A DNA stretch of 64,000 bases from positions 640,001 to 704,000 of the forward strand of contig OY843768.1 in the NCBI GenBank assembly GCA_963693095.2. Direction: 5' to 3'. The translations under genes and the position numbers were made by a program. Position 1 is the first letter of the stretch. Each line of letters opens with the position of its first letter. The notes under the pieces are model-generated. The model did not search any database. It was not told the origin of the DNA and saw only the letters and a list, made by a program, of their open reading frames with translations. The DNA is from Cenarchaeum sp. (lineage in GTDB: Archaea; Thermoproteota; Nitrososphaeria; Nitrososphaerales; Nitrosopumilaceae). This document shows, piece by piece, positions 5,629 through 35,092 of this stretch.

Positions 5629-6435
5629 ATGACAGCAAGGAGGAAGCGACAGAGTGCCGCACGCCAGACCAGGCGCGCCATCCCGCGTATATCCACCCGT
5701 GGAACGTATGACCTGAGGACAGGCGCTGACCTCAAGCGCGCATCACGCTACACCGTCTGGCCCAGGGCAAAATTTGGCGCAACTGCGGCCGTGTCGCCCG
5801 AGATCGCCATTGTTGTCCATGGCATGAGAAACAACCGTGCCGGAGCCGCCGAAAAGTTTGCAATCGCGCAGAGGCGCCTGCGCTCCCTGGGATACAAGTT
5901 TCCCATAGTGGGGTACACGTATGACGCTGACGTCCGTGGCGCACACTCGGCAGCCACGGAGGCCAGGGCACTTCGCACTGCCGAGGCAATAGCGGTGCGC
6001 AACGGCCGGCACCTCGCGGCGTTCATTGCCGACCACGTGGCGGCGCACCCCCATGTGCGCATCCGCCTCATTGGCCACTCGCTCGGATCGCTGGTAATAG
6101 ACAGCGCGCTGCGCCGCCTCGACTCCCTAAAGGCAGGAGCCAACGCAGTGGAGAGCGTTCACCTCTTTGGGGCATCACTCGGGGCAGCGCGCGCCGCCTC
6201 TGCACAGTCGAGACACGCAGTCAGGCGCGTCGTGCGCCGCCGTCTAGTCAACTGCTACTGCCCGACTGACGAGGTCCTGCGCCACTCTGCAGACGCCGGT
6301 GACATTGATGCGCCAGTTGGCCTTGCGGGACTGCCGACACCGCGCAGGCTGCCTGCACACTATGCGCAGCGGCGCCTACATCCGCGCAACCACAGGTTTG
6401 CAAGCTATGTGGCCGCATTGCGCTCGTTTCCATGA
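5629..6435 (+). CDS. Alpha/beta hydrolase (DUF726/DUF900-like)
   Basis: VHG oxyanion motif and LIGHSLG nucleophile elbow. Confidence 0.8.
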   Translation: MTARRKRQSAARQTRRAIPRISTRGTYDLRTGADLKRASRYTVWPRAKFGATAAVSPEIAIVVHGMRNNRAGAAEKFAIAQRRLRSLGYKFPIVGYTYDADVRGAHSAATEARALRTAEAIAVRNGRHLAAFIADHVAAHPHVRIRLIGHSLGSLVIDSALRRLDSLKAGANAVESVHLFGASLGAARAASAQSRHAVRRVVRRRLVNCYCPTDEVLRHSADAGDIDAPVGLAGLPTPRRLPAHYAQRRLHPRNHRFASYVAALRSFP

Positions 6436-6441
6436 TGCGCG

Positions 6442-7464
6442 CTAGAACCACTTGTCAAGGTTGTTCGCCTGCCTCTCCTTGGCCTTTTGCAGCCTCGAGA
6501 GCGATGCGGACACCCTATCCTCTGAAAAGCTCCGCTCGCCGGCAAGGTATGCGACTATGGCCTTGACGTCAACGTCACCGGGGCTCAGGTCAGCCTCGCA
6601 CGCCTCGGGCTCATCGAGGAATATCTTTCGTATTGCGCCATGGTCAATCCCCGCAAGCTCGTCGGCGATGCTTGGGATGTCCTCGAGGCGCCCGTGCTCC
6701 TTGATGAGCTTTATTGCCGTCTTTGGCCCAATTCTTGTAAACCCGTCAGGGTTAAAGTCAGTCCCAACGAGTATTCCGACGTCCACTAGCTGCTCGCGCG
6801 TTATTCCCAGCGAGTCAAGCGTCTTTTGTGAGCTTATCGTCTCTATCTCGACGTCAACGTACGTGTTCCGGTTTGGCAGCTTGCGCCTCCCGCTCAGGCT
6901 AAAGTTCCTCACGAGGCGTGTTGCGCCAAAGAGCACAGAGTCATAGTCCTGGCTTGCCGACGCGTGCGCCTGGCCTGTTCTTGTCAGGTGCGCGGCAAAT
7001 GCCTCGCCCTCTGAAGGCGCCTCCACGCACGGTATGCCAAACATTCCGAGCAGCTTTTTTGCGTCAACGACCATCTCGTCCCGCATGGCCGTCGTCTGCT
7101 GCGCGTACTTTTTGGCCGACTCCATGTCGCCCTCACGCACGGCCTTTTCGTACTTTATGGCCGCATCCTTTTTTGCGCTGCGCCTCCTCTCTATCTCGGC
7201 GGCCTTTAGAGACGGTGGCCTGCCGTCAAAGACGTACACGGGCTTGACCCCGTGGGAGAGGAACTTTACGTTTCGATAGAACAGGCCGGCGAGGTGGCTT
7301 GTCGTGCGTCCGCGCGCGTCTGCCAGCGGCGCGCCGTCGGCTCCGCGTATGGACGCCATGAACTGGTACATTGCATTGTATGCGTCAATGGCCACGGTCT
7401 TTGACATGAACGCCTCCATGCTCGACTTTTCCCTGACTATCAGGGGCTTTAGGTCAAGGCCCAT
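6442..7464 (-). CDS. fen: Flap endonuclease 1
   Basis: IDAYN, YVFDG, APSEGEA, SQDYDS, GTDFN, GPKTA, C-terminal PIP box QANNLDKWF. Confidence 0.97.
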
Positions 7465-7619
7465 GCGCGCGGCCCCGGCGCTGTCCTAATTTGTGTATGT
7501 CGGCGAGGCCGTGATTGGATCCCCCATGTGGGCCGCGTGCGCCCCCTGGCGCGCCCAGTCTGCACCCATGCGTAAGGCAGGCGCCTTTCTATATTAAGGA
7601 GTGCGCAGGCGTGCGGCAC

Positions 7620-7718
7620 GCCGGGTTAGCCAAGTGGTTACGGCGATCGCCTCGAGATCCAACAGGTGAGCGATTGCGCTTACGGCGCGCAAGGGTTCGA
7701 ATCCCTTACCCGGCGCCA
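7620..7718 (+). tRNA. tRNA-Ser(CGA) with a 12-nt intron at 37/38 (about 7657-7668)
   Basis: GCCGGGT/ACCCGGC acceptor, ATCGC/GCGAT anticodon stem with CT-CGA-G, long variable arm, GGTTCGAATCC, encoded CCA. Confidence 0.93.
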
Positions 7719-7746: not shown

Positions 7747-7823
7747 TGGTGCCGGGGGCGGGACTTGAACGCGCGACAGCTCGGTCTTCAGCCGAGTGCT
7801 CTCCCGGGCTGAGCTACCCCGGC
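7747..7823 (-). tRNA. tRNA-Phe(GAA)
   Basis: Reverse complement GCCGGGGTAGCTCAG...CT-GAA-GA...GTTCAAGTC...CCCCGGCACCA. Confidence 0.95.
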
Positions 7824-8469: not shown

Positions 8470-8595
8470 ATGGAGCCAAAGACCAAGTGTCCCTACTGTG
8501 ACTCGGAGTTTGATGACAAGGATGAGCTCTCGCGGCATATCGACAAGATACACCACGGAAGCGGTCTGCTTGAGGGAGACACGAGAAAGTACTGA
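8470..8595 (+). CDS. 41-aa C2H2 zinc-finger protein
   Basis: MEPKTKCPYCDSEFDDKDELSRHIDKIH; TTTAATA box about 30 bp upstream. Confidence 0.85.
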   Translation: MEPKTKCPYCDSEFDDKDELSRHIDKIHHGSGLLEGDTRKY

Positions 8596-9115
8596 GCCCC
8601 TGCGCGAGCTCTTTGAGCGCGCCGCGGGGCTAAAGGTGACGCGCCGTAGTGGCTGGGTCGAGAGGCTCGGCCTCGAGTCAGCCGAGTCAGTCGCCGACCA
8701 CACGTACGCGACTGCGTTCATGTCCATGGTCTATGCCGATATCATGGGACTTGACACGTGCAGGGTGGTGCGCATGGCGCTACTCCATGATCTCGCCGAG
8801 TCGATAACCGGGGACATCACTCCGGGCTCGGCTCCTGCAGGCAAAAAAGAGTCTGATGAGCGCGCCGCAATGGACTCGATACTCTTGCTGGTTCCGCAGG
8901 ACGTGCGCGCCTCCTACTCTGAGGCATGGGCAGAGTACCTTGCAGGCGAGTCGCGCGAGTCGCGCCTTGTGAGGCAGGCCGACAAGCTCGAGATGGCAAT
9001 GCAGGCGCGCCGCTATGCGCATACCGGCGACATTGGCCCGTTTATGAAAACGGCGCGCGAGCACGTGAATGACCCCGGCCTCACTCGTATGCTGGACGCC
9101 TGCGAGCGCGGCTAG
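8570..9115 (+). CDS. HD-domain phosphohydrolase (YfbR/HDDC2-like; start uncertain)
   Basis: LK..RSGW, ESVADH, LLHDLAESITGDI, QADKLE. Confidence 0.9.
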   Translation: MRETRESTEPLRELFERAAGLKVTRRSGWVERLGLESAESVADHTYATAFMSMVYADIMGLDTCRVVRMALLHDLAESITGDITPGSAPAGKKESDERAAMDSILLLVPQDVRASYSEAWAEYLAGESRESRLVRQADKLEMAMQARRYAHTGDIGPFMKTAREHVNDPGLTRMLDACERG

Positions 9116-9181
9116 GGGCGCGCGCATGTCCGCGCCGGGATAGGTTAATTACGCTAGCGCGTCGGCGCGTCTGCCAGAGAG

Positions 9182-9460
9182 TTGCCCGAATATGCAGTCA
9201 ACGTCACGATCGAGAACCGTCCCGGCATGGCCGATCCCGAGGGCGAGACGATACTGCGGGATCTCGTCCTGAGGGCGTCCTTTGACAGCGTGCGCGAGGT
9301 TCGCACGGCCCGCGTGCTGCGCTTTAGGGTCGATGCCACAGACGCCGGCGATGCCGAGGAGCGCATTGGGCGCATGTGCTCGGAGCTGCGCATATACAAC
9401 CCGCTCGTGAGCCGCGTGACAGTCAAGGCTGACGGTGCGGCCGAGTCCAAGGTTAATTAA
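9182..9460 (+). CDS. purS: FGAM synthase subunit PurS
   Basis: DPEG and YNP motifs; first gene of purS-Q-L-F. Confidence 0.93.
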   Translation: MPEYAVNVTIENRPGMADPEGETILRDLVLRASFDSVREVRTARVLRFRVDATDAGDAEERIGRMCSELRIYNPLVSRVTVKADGAAESKVN

Positions 9461-28476: not shown

Positions 28477-29763
28477 ATGGTGTTTGGATGGAAAAAAAAG
28501 GCCCCGCCTGCCGAGCCGCAGCGCATGGAGGCCCCGCGCGAGATAGAGATCTCTAGCATCGGCGCCGAGCTCGACCGCCTGTCCTCGGCTCGGCGCGAGC
28601 GCCTCGTCAGTGACGCAAAGTCGATCGTCGGGAGCATCGGCGGCGGCCTCGGCGAGATGCTCGGGATGGTCGAGCAGCTCGAGCGCGAGGAGCTCATAGA
28701 GGAGGAGACTGACAGGCACATCCGCGCGATCGTGAATCGCGGCAAGAAGCAGGTTATCGCGATAATAAGGAGGGAGGCAAAGGCCGGAATCCCGGACGTG
28801 CGCGAGTACCAGGACGTCATCGAGGCCAACCGCGAGGCCCATCGCATACTAAAGATCATAGGGGATGTCCTTGGACGGCAGACGCGCGTCATCCACATAT
28901 TTGCCAAAAAATACGCAACGCGACTAAAGTCCACACTGTCAACACTCAACACAAAAAAGGACGAGCTCGCGCGCGCTGTGCGTGACCACGAGTCATTCGA
29001 GTCATCTGTCAAGGACATACGTGAACGCATAGTTGCATTCGACGCGCTGCGTGAACGCGCGCGCAGCTCGTCAGGACGAGTGGCGGCCATCGTCGAGGAG
29101 CTGGGCAAACAACGCGAGGTACAGCAGGCAGCATCAGAAAAAATATCGACGATCATGTCGACGCCCGAGTTCGCCGAACGCTCTAAACATCTTGAGGCGC
29201 TTGAAAAGTTAGGTGCCGAGCGAACCGCACTTGATCGGGAGATAGGCGGATCATTTGCAAGGATAAGCCGTCCACTCTCAAAGTACGTCTATGTCACCTC
29301 GCTTGACAAGGAGAAAAAAACCGTAATGGCCAGGATGCTTGCCGAGCCGGCAGCCGCCCTGCGCGAGTCCGGCCCTGACATTGTGCTTGACATACTTGTT
29401 CACGTCAGAAAGGCAGTCTCATCGGCATCTGTCTCCGTAAAGGACATATCGAAATCCGAGGAGCAGATTGACGCAGTGTCTGAGGGTCTTGGGGAGTTTG
29501 TCTCGCGCATGGCCTCACTGGAGGAGCGCAAGGGTGAGATTGCCGAGCGCGTTCGCTCCTTTGACTCCTCGCAGCTTGACTCTGCGCGCGCAACGCTCGA
29601 GCGGGCCACGTCTGACATTGCGGCACTGGAGTCGCGCGAGCGCGAGATTCGGGCCGATGCCGTGGCCGCCGAGGCCGAGATTCCCTCGGCCCTCAGTGCC
29701 CTCGAGTCGCGCATGCGCGCCGTGACGTCAGTCGCGTATACGGTCCGGATGCCAGACGCCTAG
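28477..29763 (+). CDS. Coiled-coil protein
   Basis: MVFGWKKK start and long heptad E/R/K-rich helices; no Walker A motif. Confidence 0.8.
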   Translation: MVFGWKKKAPPAEPQRMEAPREIEISSIGAELDRLSSARRERLVSDAKSIVGSIGGGLGEMLGMVEQLEREELIEEETDRHIRAIVNRGKKQVIAIIRREAKAGIPDVREYQDVIEANREAHRILKIIGDVLGRQTRVIHIFAKKYATRLKSTLSTLNTKKDELARAVRDHESFESSVKDIRERIVAFDALRERARSSSGRVAAIVEELGKQREVQQAASEKISTIMSTPEFAERSKHLEALEKLGAERTALDREIGGSFARISRPLSKYVYVTSLDKEKKTVMARMLAEPAAALRESGPDIVLDILVHVRKAVSSASVSVKDISKSEEQIDAVSEGLGEFVSRMASLEERKGEIAERVRSFDSSQLDSARATLERATSDIAALESREREIRADAVAAEAEIPSALSALESRMRAVTSVAYTVRMPDA

Positions 29764-30054
29764 CAATCGGGTTCTGCAGGCTGGTCAGATCTAGTAGTGT
29801 CACACTTTGCCGTGCGGGCGCTGCCGTGACGGCATTGGCAGGCGTCATGGCGGTAGCCGACAACACCAGATCTAAATATCTCATACCATGATCATGTTTT
29901 GTCATTATACCCCCTAACTTTTTGTGATTTTGGGCATTTTTCACACTTTTTCAAGGGGTATTTGATCACTGTTCAAAAACCAAATGATTTTTACTTTTCT
30001 TTATATACTCATTTGGCATTTCTTTATAAAGAGATAGTGGCCTGACTGGCACGG

Positions 30055-31908
30055 TTGACCCAGCACAAGATTGACGTAACACCGGACAAGAGCCTCATCA
30101 AGAAGCTGGGGAGTGTAGGGTACCGAACCGAGCAGGCCATAGCAGAACTGATTGACAACTCTATCGACGCCCGCCTAGACGGTGCGTTAGAGACGATCGG
30201 GATAGTCTTGGACTTTGCGAAACGAACGATTTCTGTCCGTGACGACGGCGCCGGAATGGATCTGGATGCGCTTAGGAACTCGTGGGTGCTTGGAGCACAC
30301 TCAAAGTCATCAAACTCGAGCCTTGGCATGTTTGGAATTGGCATGAAGAGCGCATGCTCGGCCCTGGGCAAGTCGTTTTCGGTCAGGACAACAACTGCGG
30401 GTTCCAAGGCTGAACTTTACGCAAAATATGATGAAGATGAGTGGCTTGGAAGTTCAGGAGGGTGGGATGACTTTGAGGTTACTGAAACCCCAACTGATGC
30501 AGACACGCACGGAACAGAAGTCGTCGTGTCAAAGATCAATGTTGCGCTTTATCGTGCACAGGCTGCACAATTTCGAAAGCGCTTTGGAATACGCTATGCC
30601 CAGCATATGTTGGATCAACAAATAAAGATCACTGTCAACAGCAAGCCATGCAAACCAATTGAGCCAAATATTGACTATAAAACTCAAGAAAACCTTAACA
30701 TTTCCCTACCTGATGGTAATCGTATCCATGGGTGGATTGCGCTTTTACGTCAATATTCAGTCAAGGGAGATTATGGGTTTAACCTGTATCAAAACAATAG
30801 ACTAATCAGCTCTCACGCCAAATTCGGAATTCGTTACCATCCGGCAGTATCTCGTGTGGTGGGAAATCTGCATTTGGATCATGTTCCAGTAAATGTTCTT
30901 AAAACAGGGTTTTTGCCGGACACAGACGAATATGCGCAATCTCTTAAGGCAATTGAGAACGATCCGACTGTCAAAAAACTCATCAATGAGTCCGAACCTC
31001 ATGAAAAATTTAGTAGTGACTATGCCTCTGTTTTCAGAAATGATGTGCCACCAACAAAAATTCCGCGTATTGGAGATGTGAACGCCTCTCGTTTGCTTCG
31101 CAATATGATCTCTGTGGATGTGCTTGACACTGCGTCTCCTCGTATGGCGCTGGAGGATTGCGACTCTGGAGTGTACCGCATTGAAGGTAGTGGCGACGAA
31201 ACAAAAGTCATTGTTAATCGACAAAGTGCCGTGTTTCGAGCCTTTAAAAATCCGCTGTTTTTGCTGGGAATGCTGCGTCTTGAAGCTCAAACTCTATCCG
31301 GTCATTCTGAAGCACAGCGTCTAATCGCAAAAAGAAACAAAACATGGGAACAGTTTGTGGATTCACACTCTATTAATCGTGATATCAAACGTATAGGATC
31401 CAATGACACATTGCCCAATAATCTTGTGATGCTACGTAGTTCAATTATGAGAGAGCTTTCAAAACGGTTCCAGTTTACGGCTCTCTCGATCTTGTCGCCA
31501 CATCTCATTAACGCATATCGTATATTGCCCTACACAGTATATGTTGCGCGAGGTTACGGCCAACTGTTAAAACATGTTATATCGCAACAGAGTGGTTATC
31601 ACGCAATTTTAAATCCTGGCCCTGGACAGGCACATCCAATACTGGAAGCACTAGATGGCGGGGCACTCATGATAATACGTGAGCGATCTGATGTGCCCAA
31701 GTCAACTGCTGCATCGTATGCCAAAGCTTGGGTTGATCTATTTGTCGAGATACGACACGAGCGTATTGGAGTTTATGAAGAAGAGCTTGAGATGCTGTGG
31801 GATCTTGAAGACCAAAGCTTGCTTACTATGAACCAAGTGCAGTCATATGCGAAACGCCGCAGTGTTGCACAAGAGGTGGCTAAATATACTGGGGATGGCA
31901 CCACGTGA
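30055..31908 (+). CDS. GHKL/MORC-type ATPase (HATPase_c_3-like) with a putative AbiEi-like C-terminal domain
   Basis: AIAELIDNSIDA, DDGAGM, GMFGIGMKSA, HGT motifs; C-terminal SYAKAWVDLF; low GC. Confidence 0.85.
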   Translation: MTQHKIDVTPDKSLIKKLGSVGYRTEQAIAELIDNSIDARLDGALETIGIVLDFAKRTISVRDDGAGMDLDALRNSWVLGAHSKSSNSSLGMFGIGMKSACSALGKSFSVRTTTAGSKAELYAKYDEDEWLGSSGGWDDFEVTETPTDADTHGTEVVVSKINVALYRAQAAQFRKRFGIRYAQHMLDQQIKITVNSKPCKPIEPNIDYKTQENLNISLPDGNRIHGWIALLRQYSVKGDYGFNLYQNNRLISSHAKFGIRYHPAVSRVVGNLHLDHVPVNVLKTGFLPDTDEYAQSLKAIENDPTVKKLINESEPHEKFSSDYASVFRNDVPPTKIPRIGDVNASRLLRNMISVDVLDTASPRMALEDCDSGVYRIEGSGDETKVIVNRQSAVFRAFKNPLFLLGMLRLEAQTLSGHSEAQRLIAKRNKTWEQFVDSHSINRDIKRIGSNDTLPNNLVMLRSSIMRELSKRFQFTALSILSPHLINAYRILPYTVYVARGYGQLLKHVISQQSGYHAILNPGPGQAHPILEALDGGALMIIRERSDVPKSTAASYAKAWVDLFVEIRHERIGVYEEELEMLWDLEDQSLLTMNQVQSYAKRRSVAQEVAKYTGDGTT

Positions 31909-32993
31909 TTGTTGATGGTCTGACTAGACGTGATCTCAAGTCAAGAGCTAGTAAATTTGGTTTTTCTAATTCAGGCTATCTTGAAAAGTTTATGATGGAT
32001 TTTGATGCCTACATTGCATTATCTAATGTGAGAAAATGTTATGTTCGTGGGGGCATGTGTGTGCCTTTTTATGTTGATTCTAAACATCGCCGTCTCAGTA
32101 AAGATCTAGATGTATATGTGACTTGTTCAGTTGACGAGATCACTGATAAAGTTTCTGCTGCATTGAAGGATGTGGGGTTTGTACATGCTAAACGCGATAA
32201 ATCTCGCGGCAATCAGTCTCTGATTAATAACTGGGTTCGTTTTAAGGCTTTCTATGTTCCCGTGGGCTCTTCGGATCATCCATCAGCACCTAGTCAGTTA
32301 GATTCAATATCTGTTGATATCACCTGTGGGATTGATGCTGCTCAGCTTGACACTACTCTCCTAGAACAGGAACAAAATTTATTTGACTTTCCAATACCGC
32401 CTCCAATCCACACACTTTCTAGAGGAGCACTTATCGCAGACAAGATTCATTCACTGGGGTGTGGGTCTGTGGAATATCCTAAGCCTGTGGGACGTTCTAA
32501 GCCTGTGGGATATTCTAATCTTGAGTCTACACCAAAGCAGATATACGATATTGGCATGCTGCTGCGAAAAACAACAACCGATGATCTTATTATTTTGATA
32601 CAGATGTACAATTATTTAACAAATTTTAAATTAAAAAACGGAAATCGCGATTTTGGACCAGTGGGGGTAATTCAAAGCGTTAAATCATATATTTCTTCTA
32701 TTTTAACAAATCACACCTTGCCTCGGCTGACTAGCGCACATAGCGATCATTTTTCCACTTTTTCTCAAAGTATGCTCTCAAAACCCTATATTAACGAAGT
32801 CGAACATTCAAAAAATATCATGTTGACTTTTCTCTGTGCTGACTTTCTTGAGCGCTCTCTTGCTGCCCCTGACTCAAATGAACAATTGGCTGAACATATG
32901 CAACATACACTCGATGCTGCATTCAAACTTGAAACACTTGAAGACCAGATATCATTTTTAAAGCGACATGTTGAAGATGTTGGCTCACCTTGA
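31905..32993 (+). CDS. AbiEii/AbiGii-family nucleotidyltransferase toxin
   Basis: VRGGMC, RLSKDLD, IADKI, KQIYD motifs; GTGA overlap with the upstream gene. Confidence 0.85.
   Translation: MIVDGLTRRDLKSRASKFGFSNSGYLEKFMMDFDAYIALSNVRKCYVRGGMCVPFYVDSKHRRLSKDLDVYVTCSVDEITDKVSAALKDVGFVHAKRDKSRGNQSLINNWVRFKAFYVPVGSSDHPSAPSQLDSISVDITCGIDAAQLDTTLLEQEQNLFDFPIPPPIHTLSRGALIADKIHSLGCGSVEYPKPVGRSKPVGYSNLESTPKQIYDIGMLLRKTTTDDLIILIQMYNYLTNFKLKNGNRDFGPVGVIQSVKSYISSILTNHTLPRLTSAHSDHFSTFSQSMLSKPYINEVEHSKNIMLTFLCADFLERSLAAPDSNEQLAEHMQHTLDAAFKLETLEDQISFLKRHVEDVGSP
32466..32519 (+). repeat. Three degenerate 18-bp in-frame tandem repeats in the AbiEii gene
   Basis: tctgtggaatatcctaag / cctgtgggacgttctaag / cctgtgggatattctaat. 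Confidence 0.85.
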
Positions 32994-33216
32994 CAATCTT
33001 GCCACGTCGGATATCTTGACCGCTGTGGTGGGTGTGTCCTACCTTGAACATTTTCCTGTATGCCGTTTCTTGCAAACGTGTGGAGTCGGGCGGTCATGTT
33101 TTCTGGATCCTGCTAGATTGACATGGTGTCCTGTCGCCTGCTGACTCCAATATTGACGCATGGTCATGGCGTATTCCATGAGTGCAGTTAAATCCGGCCA
33201 CGTGTGCATGCTGCGC

Positions 33217-34044: not shown

Positions 34045-34299
34045 CCTGGCGCCATGTGCCATTGTTGGGTTCTCAGAATGCCCGTCTGCCGCGATGCTTC
34101 CATGCGGGGGCCTGATTGCGTGCCTTTCTTGCCTATGTTCACGCGTGCATGGGGAGATCCTGGCAGTTCGTGACCTCATATTGGCTGTGTGAGCAAGCCG
34201 ACTAGGCGTAAAGACTCTAATCGTATGCCTCGGCGCGTCGGCGCTGATGCCCATTGTGCCTCAACGTGCCGCCGAGGTGCCGCCACAGCGGCGATCCGG

Positions 34300-34508
34300 T
34301 AATTTCCAATACTTATTGTATCATTTCATAACAAATCATATTATTATGATATATATCATTAGTATTAATTCTAATGTTAGCATTACAAGATATTTCCTAT
34401 TACAACTATACATATCATATGATAGGGATATTATTCAGTTTCCTGTTATCAATATCATTCAAATGAATAATAGTGCTCTAATTCTAATAAGTGTAAACTA
34501 GAATCTAT
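34300..34508. other. Sharply bounded AT-rich tract containing short palindromes
   Basis: Roughly three-quarters or more A+T by eye; contains ATGATATATATCAT and TATCATATGATA. Confidence 0.85.
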
Positions 34509-34570
34509 GCGAGCGGTCAAAAAATGCTGATCTTTCCCACTTTTGGCCTGGTGGGGCGCACGGGAGGCCG

Positions 34571-35092
34571 ATGGAGACACTGGTAGACCGCCCTGTCAGC
34601 GTGACGAGGACTATAGCGTCGAGTCCTGACGAGGCAAGCGCGATAGCGGATCCCGTGAGGGCGGCCATACTCGCGCTCCTCTATCGCCGGACGCTGACGG
34701 CCGAGCAGATATTCGAGCGTCTAGGCAGGCGCGGCAAGAAAAAGGCGCTCACGACGGTGCGCCACCATATCGACGTCCTCCGCTCCGCTGGCCTAGTGGA
34801 CATTGTGAAGGTCGTAGAGTCCCGAGGGGGAGTGACAAAGCACTATGGGACGTCCACGAGGCTCCTCATGCAGAACCCCCAGGATGATTTTGACGAGCAG
34901 CACTCGGATGCCATTGCGGCTGCAGCCGTTGGCCTTGCGGCCATCATAGAGTCAGCAGGCGCAAAGATTGCGCCAAAGGATGGAAAAAAACGCGTTGATC
35001 CGGCGCACAGACACTATGTCGTCGCCGAGATACTAAACCGCGCAATGACTGCGGCCATGGAGCGTGGCTCGCGCGCACCGTCAGGGTCATAG
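34571..35092 (+). CDS. ArsR-family winged-helix regulator
   Basis: ADPVRAAILALL, TVRHHIDVLRSAGLV, RGGVTKHY. Confidence 0.9.
   Translation: METLVDRPVSVTRTIASSPDEASAIADPVRAAILALLYRRTLTAEQIFERLGRRGKKKALTTVRHHIDVLRSAGLVDIVKVVESRGGVTKHYGTSTRLLMQNPQDDFDEQHSDAIAAAAVGLAAIIESAGAKIAPKDGKKRVDPAHRHYVVAEILNRAMTAAMERGSRAPSGS

Follow-up and report, generated by a model that had tools for sequence, protein, structure and literature searches.

In a stretch of 64,000 nucleotides from Cenarchaeum sp., an ammonia-oxidising archaeon of the Nitrosopumilaceae (assembly GCA_963693095.2, contig OY843768.1, positions 640,001 to 704,000 of the forward strand; this whole stretch is called the window, and positions are counted from its first letter), we found two overlapping genes which probably form an AbiE-family toxin-antitoxin/abortive-infection module with a remodelled antitoxin, in which an ATPase head would act as the toxin-release switch. 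The probability of this reading is put at about 0.6. The first gene, G1 (30055-31908, + strand, 617 amino acids (aa), TTG start), was characterised from its open reading frame (ORF), Pfam matches, an AlphaFold model and homologues, and encodes a fusion of a MORC-like GHKL+S5 ATPase with a C-terminal domain of the AbiEi type. The second, G2 (31905-32993, + strand, 362 aa, GTG start), was recognised by its ORF, its overlap with G1, Pfam and invariant residues as an AbiEii/DUF1814 nucleotidyltransferase, the predicted toxin. The tetranucleotide GTGA at 31905-31908, read directly in the sequence, is common to the G1 stop and the G2 start and makes a 4-base overlap. A previous prediction, made by a model from the letters of this DNA (the original prediction), had described two translationally coupled genes with such an overlap, and both the ORFs and the sequence agree with it. 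Domain identities, operon structure, pairing and the conservation of catalytic residues were all computed here.

The C-terminal domain of G1

Residues 445-617 of G1 (31387..31905, + strand, 173 aa) correspond to the antitoxicity domain found at the C-terminus of AbiEi-type antitoxins, in its Pfam DUF6577 subfamily. This assignment was drawn from a structural model, a structure match, hhalign and a PADLOC match on a homologue. When modelled alone, the segment folded well, with a predicted local distance difference test score (pLDDT) of 91.4. Its best structural match among 48,161 chains was the Streptococcus agalactiae AbiEi protein (6y8q_A, residues 57-193), to which the VIA search aligned 121 residues with a Z value of 8.9 and a root-mean-square deviation (rmsd) of 3.1 Å. 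A repeat search agreed, and the next-best row reached a Z of 5.9 in the one search and 6.4 in the other. Furthermore, when a profile of 50 fused tails was compared by hhalign with one of seven free-standing DUF6577 proteins bearing a winged helix-turn-helix (wHTH), a match over 165 columns was obtained (probability 99.5%, E 2.8e-23), which started right after the wHTH of the free-standing proteins. Pfam DUF6577 was also detected on the same region of the full-length G1 homologues P0015 and P0081 (30.4 and 34.8 bits, cut-off 27.8) and on one G1 paralogue of the host genome, which passes with 29 bits, and the PADLOC AbiEi models matched residues 470-636 of P0081 with an E-value of 7.4e-7. The original prediction had seen an AbiEi likeness in about 180 C-terminal residues and had envisaged an unrelated fold as the alternative; the domain at 445-617 is the one it had pointed to, and hhalign, the structure search and the DUF6577 homologues all indicate an AbiEi-like fold.

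Below AbiEi, the structural matches of the tail were mostly nucleotidyltransferase folds, namely MenT1 (Z 5.9-6.4), ANT(2'')-Ia, MenT4, TglT, LnuA, TM1012 and MNT, a Z of 5-6 in the VIA search falling within the range of common arrangements. The tail also contains a conserved GxG (G500, G502) after a strand and LNP at the place expected for DxD; E543, E556 and D561 of the tail are conserved as well. It is possible that the AbiEi-type antidote domain is itself a decayed nucleotidyltransferase, akin to the toxin in fold, with GxG kept and DxD lost; if it is, a duplicated toxin may have been its ancestor.

The ATPase head of G1

Full-length homologues of G1 number more than 120, with identities of 37-94%, and the AlphaFold model built from an alignment of 121 sequences had a mean pLDDT of 83.1, with values of 50-60 for residues 311-360 and below 50 for residues 440-449. 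The N-terminal part of the protein is a GHKL Bergerat-fold ATP-binding domain (residues ~1-165, 30055..30549, + strand), judged by HATPase_c_3, conserved columns and a Foldseek match to MORC4. It is followed by an S5-fold transducer-like domain (residues ~166-300, 30550..30954, + strand), for which an invariant K283, Foldseek matches to MORC2/3/4 and a weak Morc6_S5 similarity were taken as evidence. The middle region (residues ~301-444, 30955..31386, + strand), modelled as helices and a small beta-sheet and then a disordered linker at 440-449, gave no Pfam match over 301-444.

Pfam HATPase_c_3 covered residues 23-121 with an E-value of 1.4e-17, and the ATP-binding motifs could be located as the N-box (E31/N35), DxGxG (D63-G67), the glycine lid (G91-G96) and G153-T154. 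Among the 121 homologues E31, N35, D63, G65, G67, G91, G94, G96, G153 and K283 were invariant or at least 90% conserved, K283 of the S5-like domain being invariant, which argues that the G1 ATPase is under selection. As had been claimed beforehand, all the GHKL motifs are carried by the first gene. The top Foldseek matches of the G1 model were the ATPase modules of MORC4, MORC2 and MORC3 (E 1.1e-15 to 4e-14, 368-393 columns, rmsd ~6 Å); the best of them, MORC4 7k7t_B, aligned over 368 columns with a template modelling (TM) score of 0.58 on the target. The Pfam Morc6_S5 model gave 17.4 bits on G1 itself, under its cut-off of 26.2, and 26.6 bits on the homologue P0092. From sequence and model, the head can be described as a MORC-like GHKL+S5 ATPase whose catalytic residues appear intact.

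A reading of the head as an Hsp90/HtpG-like chaperone was also considered and rejected: the E-values of Hsp90 and TRAP1 were near those of the MORC proteins, but the rmsd was 18-25 Å and the TM score ~0.32, and the NCBIfam HtpG model reached only an E-value of 0.072.

G2, the predicted toxin

G2 was matched by the Pfam AbiEii family (PF08843) with 38.6 bits (cut-off 22.5), and weakly by the PADLOC AbiEii models, of which PDLC02299 was best (E 7.4e-6). The GG, RxSxDLD, ADK and KxxYD motifs listed in the original prediction are all present, and E27, G49, G50, R63, S65, D67, D69, K180, K211 and D215 are invariant in the 37 family members compared. S. agalactiae AbiEii is reported to depend on G49/G50 (motif I) and D67/D69 (motif II) both for binding GTP and for its toxicity (Dy et al. 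2014, PMC3985639), and in the same protein R63 is given as essential and T65 as the phospho-acceptor (10.64898/2026.01.19.700257). R63 and S65 of G2 bear the same residue numbers as R63 and T65 of that toxin, a correspondence of numbering and motif spacing, not of alignment.

The invariance of S65 bears on another explanation, namely that the pair belongs to type VII and carries its own phospho-donor. Like the Bergerat-fold kinases, among them histidine kinases and SpoIIAB, the GHKL domain would then be a protein kinase or ATP-presenting module that phosphorylates Ser65 of G2, while the C-terminal domain would dock the toxin. Neutralisation would in this case require cellular ATP, and a fall of ATP in infection or starvation would free the toxin. 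This explanation would account for an S65 invariant in 37 G2 sequences and for ATP-binding residues of G1 that are invariant or nearly so, and it has a parallel in AbiEii and MenT3, described as neutralised by Ser/Thr phosphorylation beside the catalytic DxD (10.64898/2026.01.19.700257; PMC7205606). We consider it quite unlikely, however, as the S5 domain with its invariant K283 marks GHL/MORC ATPases and not Bergerat-fold kinases, and as the characterised toxins, according to the same preprint (10.64898/2026.01.19.700257), phosphorylate themselves and need no kinase.

Inside G2, three tandem 18-nt units (32467..32520, + strand) code for a repeat of six residues in the loop that immediately precedes KxxYD. 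These units were also found, in diverged form, in the G2 of the nearest relative (85% identical).

Association and decay of the two genes

A scan of species-representative genomes returned 60 G1 loci, nearly all of them in Nitrosopumilaceae (Cenarchaeum, Nitrosopumilus), with one contig labelled Dehalococcoidia and one partial match in Woesearchaeota. Linkage to G2 was counted on the 50 loci in which G1 had at least 590 aa. An intact G2 lay directly downstream in 34, the spacing being -8 to +7 nt in most of them; five others held G2 fragments (two split by insertion elements, two decayed, one at a contig end), and the remaining 11 had a full-length G1 and no G2. When the count was started from G2, the C-terminal domain of G1 was found directly upstream and on the same strand at 24/24 loci with room for it. 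The pairing, which the original prediction had marked for a check elsewhere, is thereby conserved from either side. The pair has an accessory character: its GC content is low, and of the 151 Nitrosopumilaceae genomes sampled, 17 contained G2 (26 loci, 8 of 27 genera), with 1-3 matches per genome.

G2 was broken in 7 of these 26 loci by stops, shortening or the insertion of a mobile element, and in five of the seven (L117, L119, L121, L128 and L130) the G1-domain reading frame upstream stayed open for more than 1,300 nt. In two Nitrosopumilaceae genomes, G2 was split by an insertion (L003:8257-9594, - strand, and L046:8513-9757, + strand); of the two insertions, one codes for a TnpB/IS605 OrfB-like protein, in which a Cas12f1-like TNB domain is recognised, and the second for a DDE transposase. 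The loss of G2 with G1 kept open fits what is expected of a toxin and its antidote.

The 11 G1 genes without G2 suggest, on the other side, that G1 may also act by itself. They favour the view that G1 is mainly a MORC-type DNA-acting enzyme, as in the restriction-linked MORCs, and that G2 is no toxin but a regulated accessory or housekeeping enzyme modifying tRNA or nucleotides. A link of prokaryotic MORC and paraMORC proteins to restriction-modification has been described (PMC2292703), and a weak match of an NCBIfam BbrUII/HgiDII restriction enzyme model was obtained (E 3.6e-7). Yet the ORF list and the Pfam scan showed neither a nuclease nor a methylase, whether as a domain or as a neighbouring gene, and the C-terminal domain of G1 is an AbiEi antitoxicity domain. 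Moreover, this G2 subtype was never found without G1 upstream at the loci with room, and repeated inactivation of G2 is unlike the behaviour of a housekeeping gene. We hold this view to be very improbable.

The host genome (2.0 Mb) contains three G1 paralogues with 40-41% identity, each beside one of its only three AbiEii matches. The second pair lies on the - strand (G1 at G000:C1:510081-511919, G2 at 508990-510057) and the third on the + strand (G1 at G000:C1:891180-892994, G2 at 893011-894084). One of these further pairs is low in GC (0.464 for G1 and 0.35 for G2) and one is near the genome GC (0.589 and 0.534), a contrast that suggests different ages or sources.

Two single loci may be added. 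A complete G1 and G2, with a G1 40% identical to that of the window, were present on the 46-kb contig CBDCTF010000004.1, labelled as a Dehalococcoidia bacterium, which represents either a cross-domain transfer or a mis-binned thaumarchaeal contig. At locus L024, an orphan G1 without G2 is followed by the gene of a 781-aa AAA_13/SMC_N-type ATPase (L024:8500-10842, + strand), a hint of a defence-island neighbourhood.

Proposed mechanism

The toxicity, neutralisation, tRNA target, phosphorylation, sensor role and defence spoken of in this section are what we infer for the module. The AbiEii and MenT toxins are described as blocking translation via modification of tRNA ends (PMC13064643). By analogy, G2 would be a toxin adding nucleotides to tRNA acceptor ends, and so would halt translation. 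G1 would be the antidote, its C-terminal 173 residues binding G2, and this tail could occlude the active site of G2, induce an inhibitory auto-phosphorylation of Ser65, or both. For AbiEi, a 2026 preprint locates the antitoxic activity in the C-terminal domain and reports only a few toxin contacts for the wHTH (10.64898/2026.01.19.700257), so that a swap of the head is compatible with retained antitoxicity. The preprint also cites a structure of the AbiEi:AbiEii complex (PDB 9HLO). In that preprint, AbiE is argued to be of type VII, not type IV, and its neutralisation is recast as an antitoxin-induced auto-phosphorylation of the toxin (10.64898/2026.01.19.700257).

The MORC-like head of G1 would take the place of transcriptional autoregulation and serve as a switch that ATP drives to dimerise and that may clamp nucleic acid. 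Whether the toxin is held or freed by the C-terminal domain would depend on the state of this switch, and antitoxin turnover would no longer be the only trigger: the toxin would become active in response to a cue, for instance a drop in ATP or the presence of invading DNA. A more far-reaching version of the mechanism is offered only tentatively: the pair might be an energy- or invader-sensing toxin-antitoxin system, in which the ATPase dimerises on ATP, possibly round foreign nucleic acid, and sets the phosphorylation and binding state of the tRNA-modifying toxin via the tethered AbiEi domain. The antidote itself would then be an ATP-hydrolysing switch, neither a labile protein nor a repressor, and the pair would stand for a defence class, not represented among the PADLOC models scanned, in archaeal ammonia oxidisers that are abundant worldwide.

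Several results, besides the 11 G1 genes without G2, weigh against the reading of the pair as an AbiE-type module. The G1 protein of the window itself gave no DUF6577 match at E<=1 with Pfam and only an E-value of 0.011 with the PADLOC AbiEi model, so that the assignment of its tail rests on profile-profile comparison, structure and homologues. When Foldseek was run on the tail model, AbiEi ranked first, but only with an E-value of 0.1 and a TM score of 0.42, and no match was obtained at E<=0.001. On the toxin side, the G2 profile found no solved DUF1814 toxin among the PDB sequences, and the equivalence of S65 with T65 rests for this reason on motif spacing and numbering. The acidic loop D85-E86-I87, stated to be needed for full AbiEi activity (10.64898/2026.01.19.700257), has no obvious acidic counterpart in G1, where the corresponding place, by positional estimate, is occupied by a conserved N486-A-Y488; this makes it doubtful that the AbiEi mechanism can simply be carried over. 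Some other searches gave no lead: against the sequences of the PDB, the tail profile had a chance-level match only (E 0.64) and the profile of the free-standing DUF6577 proteins had only weak wHTH matches, and a protein-cluster atlas search with residues 445-617 reached a best score of 0.88, to unnamed clusters. The complex prediction of G2 with the C-terminal domain of G1 scored 0.00 in two runs made without controls and is evidence neither way.

Comparison with known systems

The pair resembles AbiE of Lactococcus and S. agalactiae and MenA-MenT of Mycobacterium tuberculosis in being an overlapping bicistronic operon with the antidote gene first, in having as antidote a protein with the AbiEi C-terminal domain, and in having as toxin a member of the DUF1814 nucleotidyltransferases that shows both GG and DxD. 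By numbering and motif spacing, R63 and S65 of G2 may also correspond to the essential Arg of these toxins and to their Ser/Thr, which lies two residues ahead of DxD. In contrast to AbiE, in which an N-terminal wHTH autoregulates the abiE promoter, G1 gave no match to any HTH family at E<=1 with Pfam, and is without the wHTH head of canonical AbiEi. Its place is taken by ~440 residues comprising the MORC-like GHKL+S5 ATPase (residues 1 to ~300) and the middle region. The original prediction had proposed just this replacement of the wHTH by an ATPase, and the domain layout bears it out. In addition, the acidic antitoxin loop is not evidently conserved and the host is an archaeon.

Closer relatives are found in the pairs of a wHTH-DUF6577 protein and an AbiEii protein of other Thermoproteota (PDLC02235 and PDLC02299), which have the same C-terminal domain family and gene order, PDLC02299 being also the best PADLOC AbiEii model for G2. 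However, the wHTH-DUF6577 proteins have 235-310 aa and an AbiEi_4 or TrmB-like wHTH, whereas G1 has 617 aa and an ATPase head. With the MORC and paraMORC proteins (eukaryotic MORC2/3/4; the restriction-linked MORCs of Iyer et al. 2008), G1 shares the order of a GHKL and an S5-fold domain with a conserved lysine. Unlike them, it is without CW, coiled-coil or nuclease partners and is fused to a toxin-antitoxin domain, its similarity to Pfam Morc6_S5 is at or under the cut-off, and its neighbour is an AbiEii nucleotidyltransferase and not a restriction-modification gene as with the restriction-linked MORCs.

The best defence-library match of the G1 head was MzaB of the Mza system (PDLC02204; NF041932), with E-values of 2.8e-8 and 4.3e-12. 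An identification of G1 as MzaB was rejected: only ~105-150 N-terminal residues align (14-118 with PADLOC, 15-157 with NF041932), representing the general GHKL core, the NF041932 score was 45.1 bits against a cut-off of 850, and no other Mza genes were seen among the ORFs flanking the pair.

Apart from this generic GHKL match to MzaB, PADLOC-DB 2.0 contains no model for G1. In the full-text literature searched, no relevant account was found of AbiEii with GHKL, of DUF1814 with a MORC ATPase, of AbiEi with HATPase, of DUF6577, or of AbiEii in Thaumarchaeota; a word-start query for MORC and AbiE was uninformative, and the architecture might be listed in the supplementary material to Iyer et al. 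2008 or to Dy et al. 2014. The portions of Makarova 2013, Iyer 2008 and Dy 2014 available to us describe only HTH-type partners. AbiE itself is already known, but we could not find an earlier description of the ATPase-headed AbiEi arrangement; the chance, raised in the original prediction, that the pair was already catalogued found nothing in its favour in the PADLOC models or this literature. As none of the PADLOC models scanned matches G1 as AbiEi, the pair would probably be overlooked in annotation as now practised.

AbiE and MenAT are among the most widespread toxin-antitoxin and abortive-infection families. An antitoxicity domain wired to a conserved ATPase would offer a handle on toxin control, through ATP state, nucleic-acid binding or dimerisation. 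It would also place a MORC-type ATPase in use outside restriction systems. The pair would also add a defence or addiction module to the Nitrosopumilaceae, which are key nitrifiers of the sea and whose immune systems are, to our knowledge, little characterised.

Free-standing relatives of the C-terminal domain

The free-standing DUF6577 proteins of other Thermoproteota were found by a Pfam scan of genomes and an exhaustive profile search; a word-based search for short proteins with the C-terminal domain of G1 had yielded one, a 262-aa fragment. These proteins have ~275 aa (range about 235-310 aa), and an N-terminal AbiEi_4 wHTH was detected above the cut-off in one and below it in two. PADLOC identified them as AbiEi (PDLC02235, E 7e-30), and in 5 of the 8 loci recovered their gene was followed by a Pfam AbiEii gene, none being seen at L068, L069 and L083.

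The C-terminal domain family is small, with 221 representatives at E<=0.001 among 1.84 billion. The 151 domain proteins that were classified (150 listed and the G1 of the window) comprised 27 full fused forms, 11 truncated fused forms, 74 short forms and 39 fragments or others. Short forms were defined as having the length and layout of the wHTH proteins, and eight of them were checked by Pfam (AbiEi_4 or TrmB-like wHTH). In a tree of 111 domains, the fused forms made up one group (Shimodaira-Hasegawa-like approximate likelihood ratio 83) with two likely fragments, beside 12 short forms, which is consistent with a single fusion event; this was a quick search with a midpoint root, on sequences drawn by a profile built from the fused forms, a design that also counts against the reading.

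Sequence composition and genomic surroundings

The GC content, measured in a sliding frame over 29750-32999, was 0.37-0.51, compared with 0.55-0.64 on either side. Individually, G1 had 0.46, G2 0.394 and the leader of G1 (29860..30054, + strand) 0.338, against 0.603 for the upstream flank, 0.574 for purC downstream and 0.60 for the entire window. The original prediction had spoken of a GC content far below that of the neighbours, of an AT-rich leader and of core-gene neighbours. The first two statements are reproduced by these values, and the third by the downstream gene: this purC encodes SAICAR synthetase (Pfam PF01259, E 1.2e-64) and is present in 19/21 related genomes. The upstream neighbour is a 442-aa protein to which Pfam gives no match. 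A search of sequencing runs returned nine holders in five studies, none of them recorded as RNA, and so bears in no way on expression.

The leader, which we take from the archaeal TATA consensus to be the probable promoter region, contains two TATA-box-like TTTATA elements at ~30000 and ~30021, 23 nt apart. A 12-nt palindrome with the core TCTTTATAAAGA, at 30018-30035, covers the second of them and could be an operator or a chance product of AT-rich DNA.

These features bear on a last explanation, in which the pair is an addiction module that serves only itself and plays no part in defence against viruses. It would persist because loss of G1 kills the cell, and the ATPase head would serve the upkeep or regulation of the element, for example by binding DNA instead of the wHTH and so repressing the operon; MORC ATPases bind and clamp DNA, and the palindrome covers the second TATA element. 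The low GC, the scattered occurrence, the presence of more than one copy in a genome and the often decayed G2 are in line with it, as is the stabilisation of plasmids reported for AbiE (PMC3985639). On the other hand, the same source reports that canonical AbiE protects against phage (PMC3985639), the orphan G1 beside the AAA_13 ATPase gene at L024 hints at a defence neighbourhood, and att-like flanking repeats, a tRNA target and an integrase were looked for around the pair and none convincing was found. We judge this explanation unlikely, and retain an AbiE-family module with an ATPase-controlled antitoxin.

Of the 19 genomes in which purC is present, only this one and its nearest relative have the pair upstream of the gene. 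A clean empty site at purC could not be defined because the remaining genomes do not share the upstream gene. In locus L023, from another Nitrosopumilaceae metagenome-assembled genome, a shortened G1 (520 aa, 5983-7545) without G2 lies just upstream of an ORF at 8523-9347, which resembles SAICAR synthetase by eye from its start (no family scan was made); this is a hint of a recurrent or old location.

Elsewhere in the window, ARAGORN called a 99-nt tRNA-Asp with the unusual anticodon ATC (7620-7718), adjoining a tRNA-Phe on the opposite strand (7747-7823); it is possibly a mis-typed intron-containing tRNA. A second AT-rich stretch (34050-34570, GC ~0.45) is situated between purC and an ArsR-type HTH gene (34571-35092; HTH_20, E 2.2e-10), and holds only one ORF, a low-complexity one of 84 aa.

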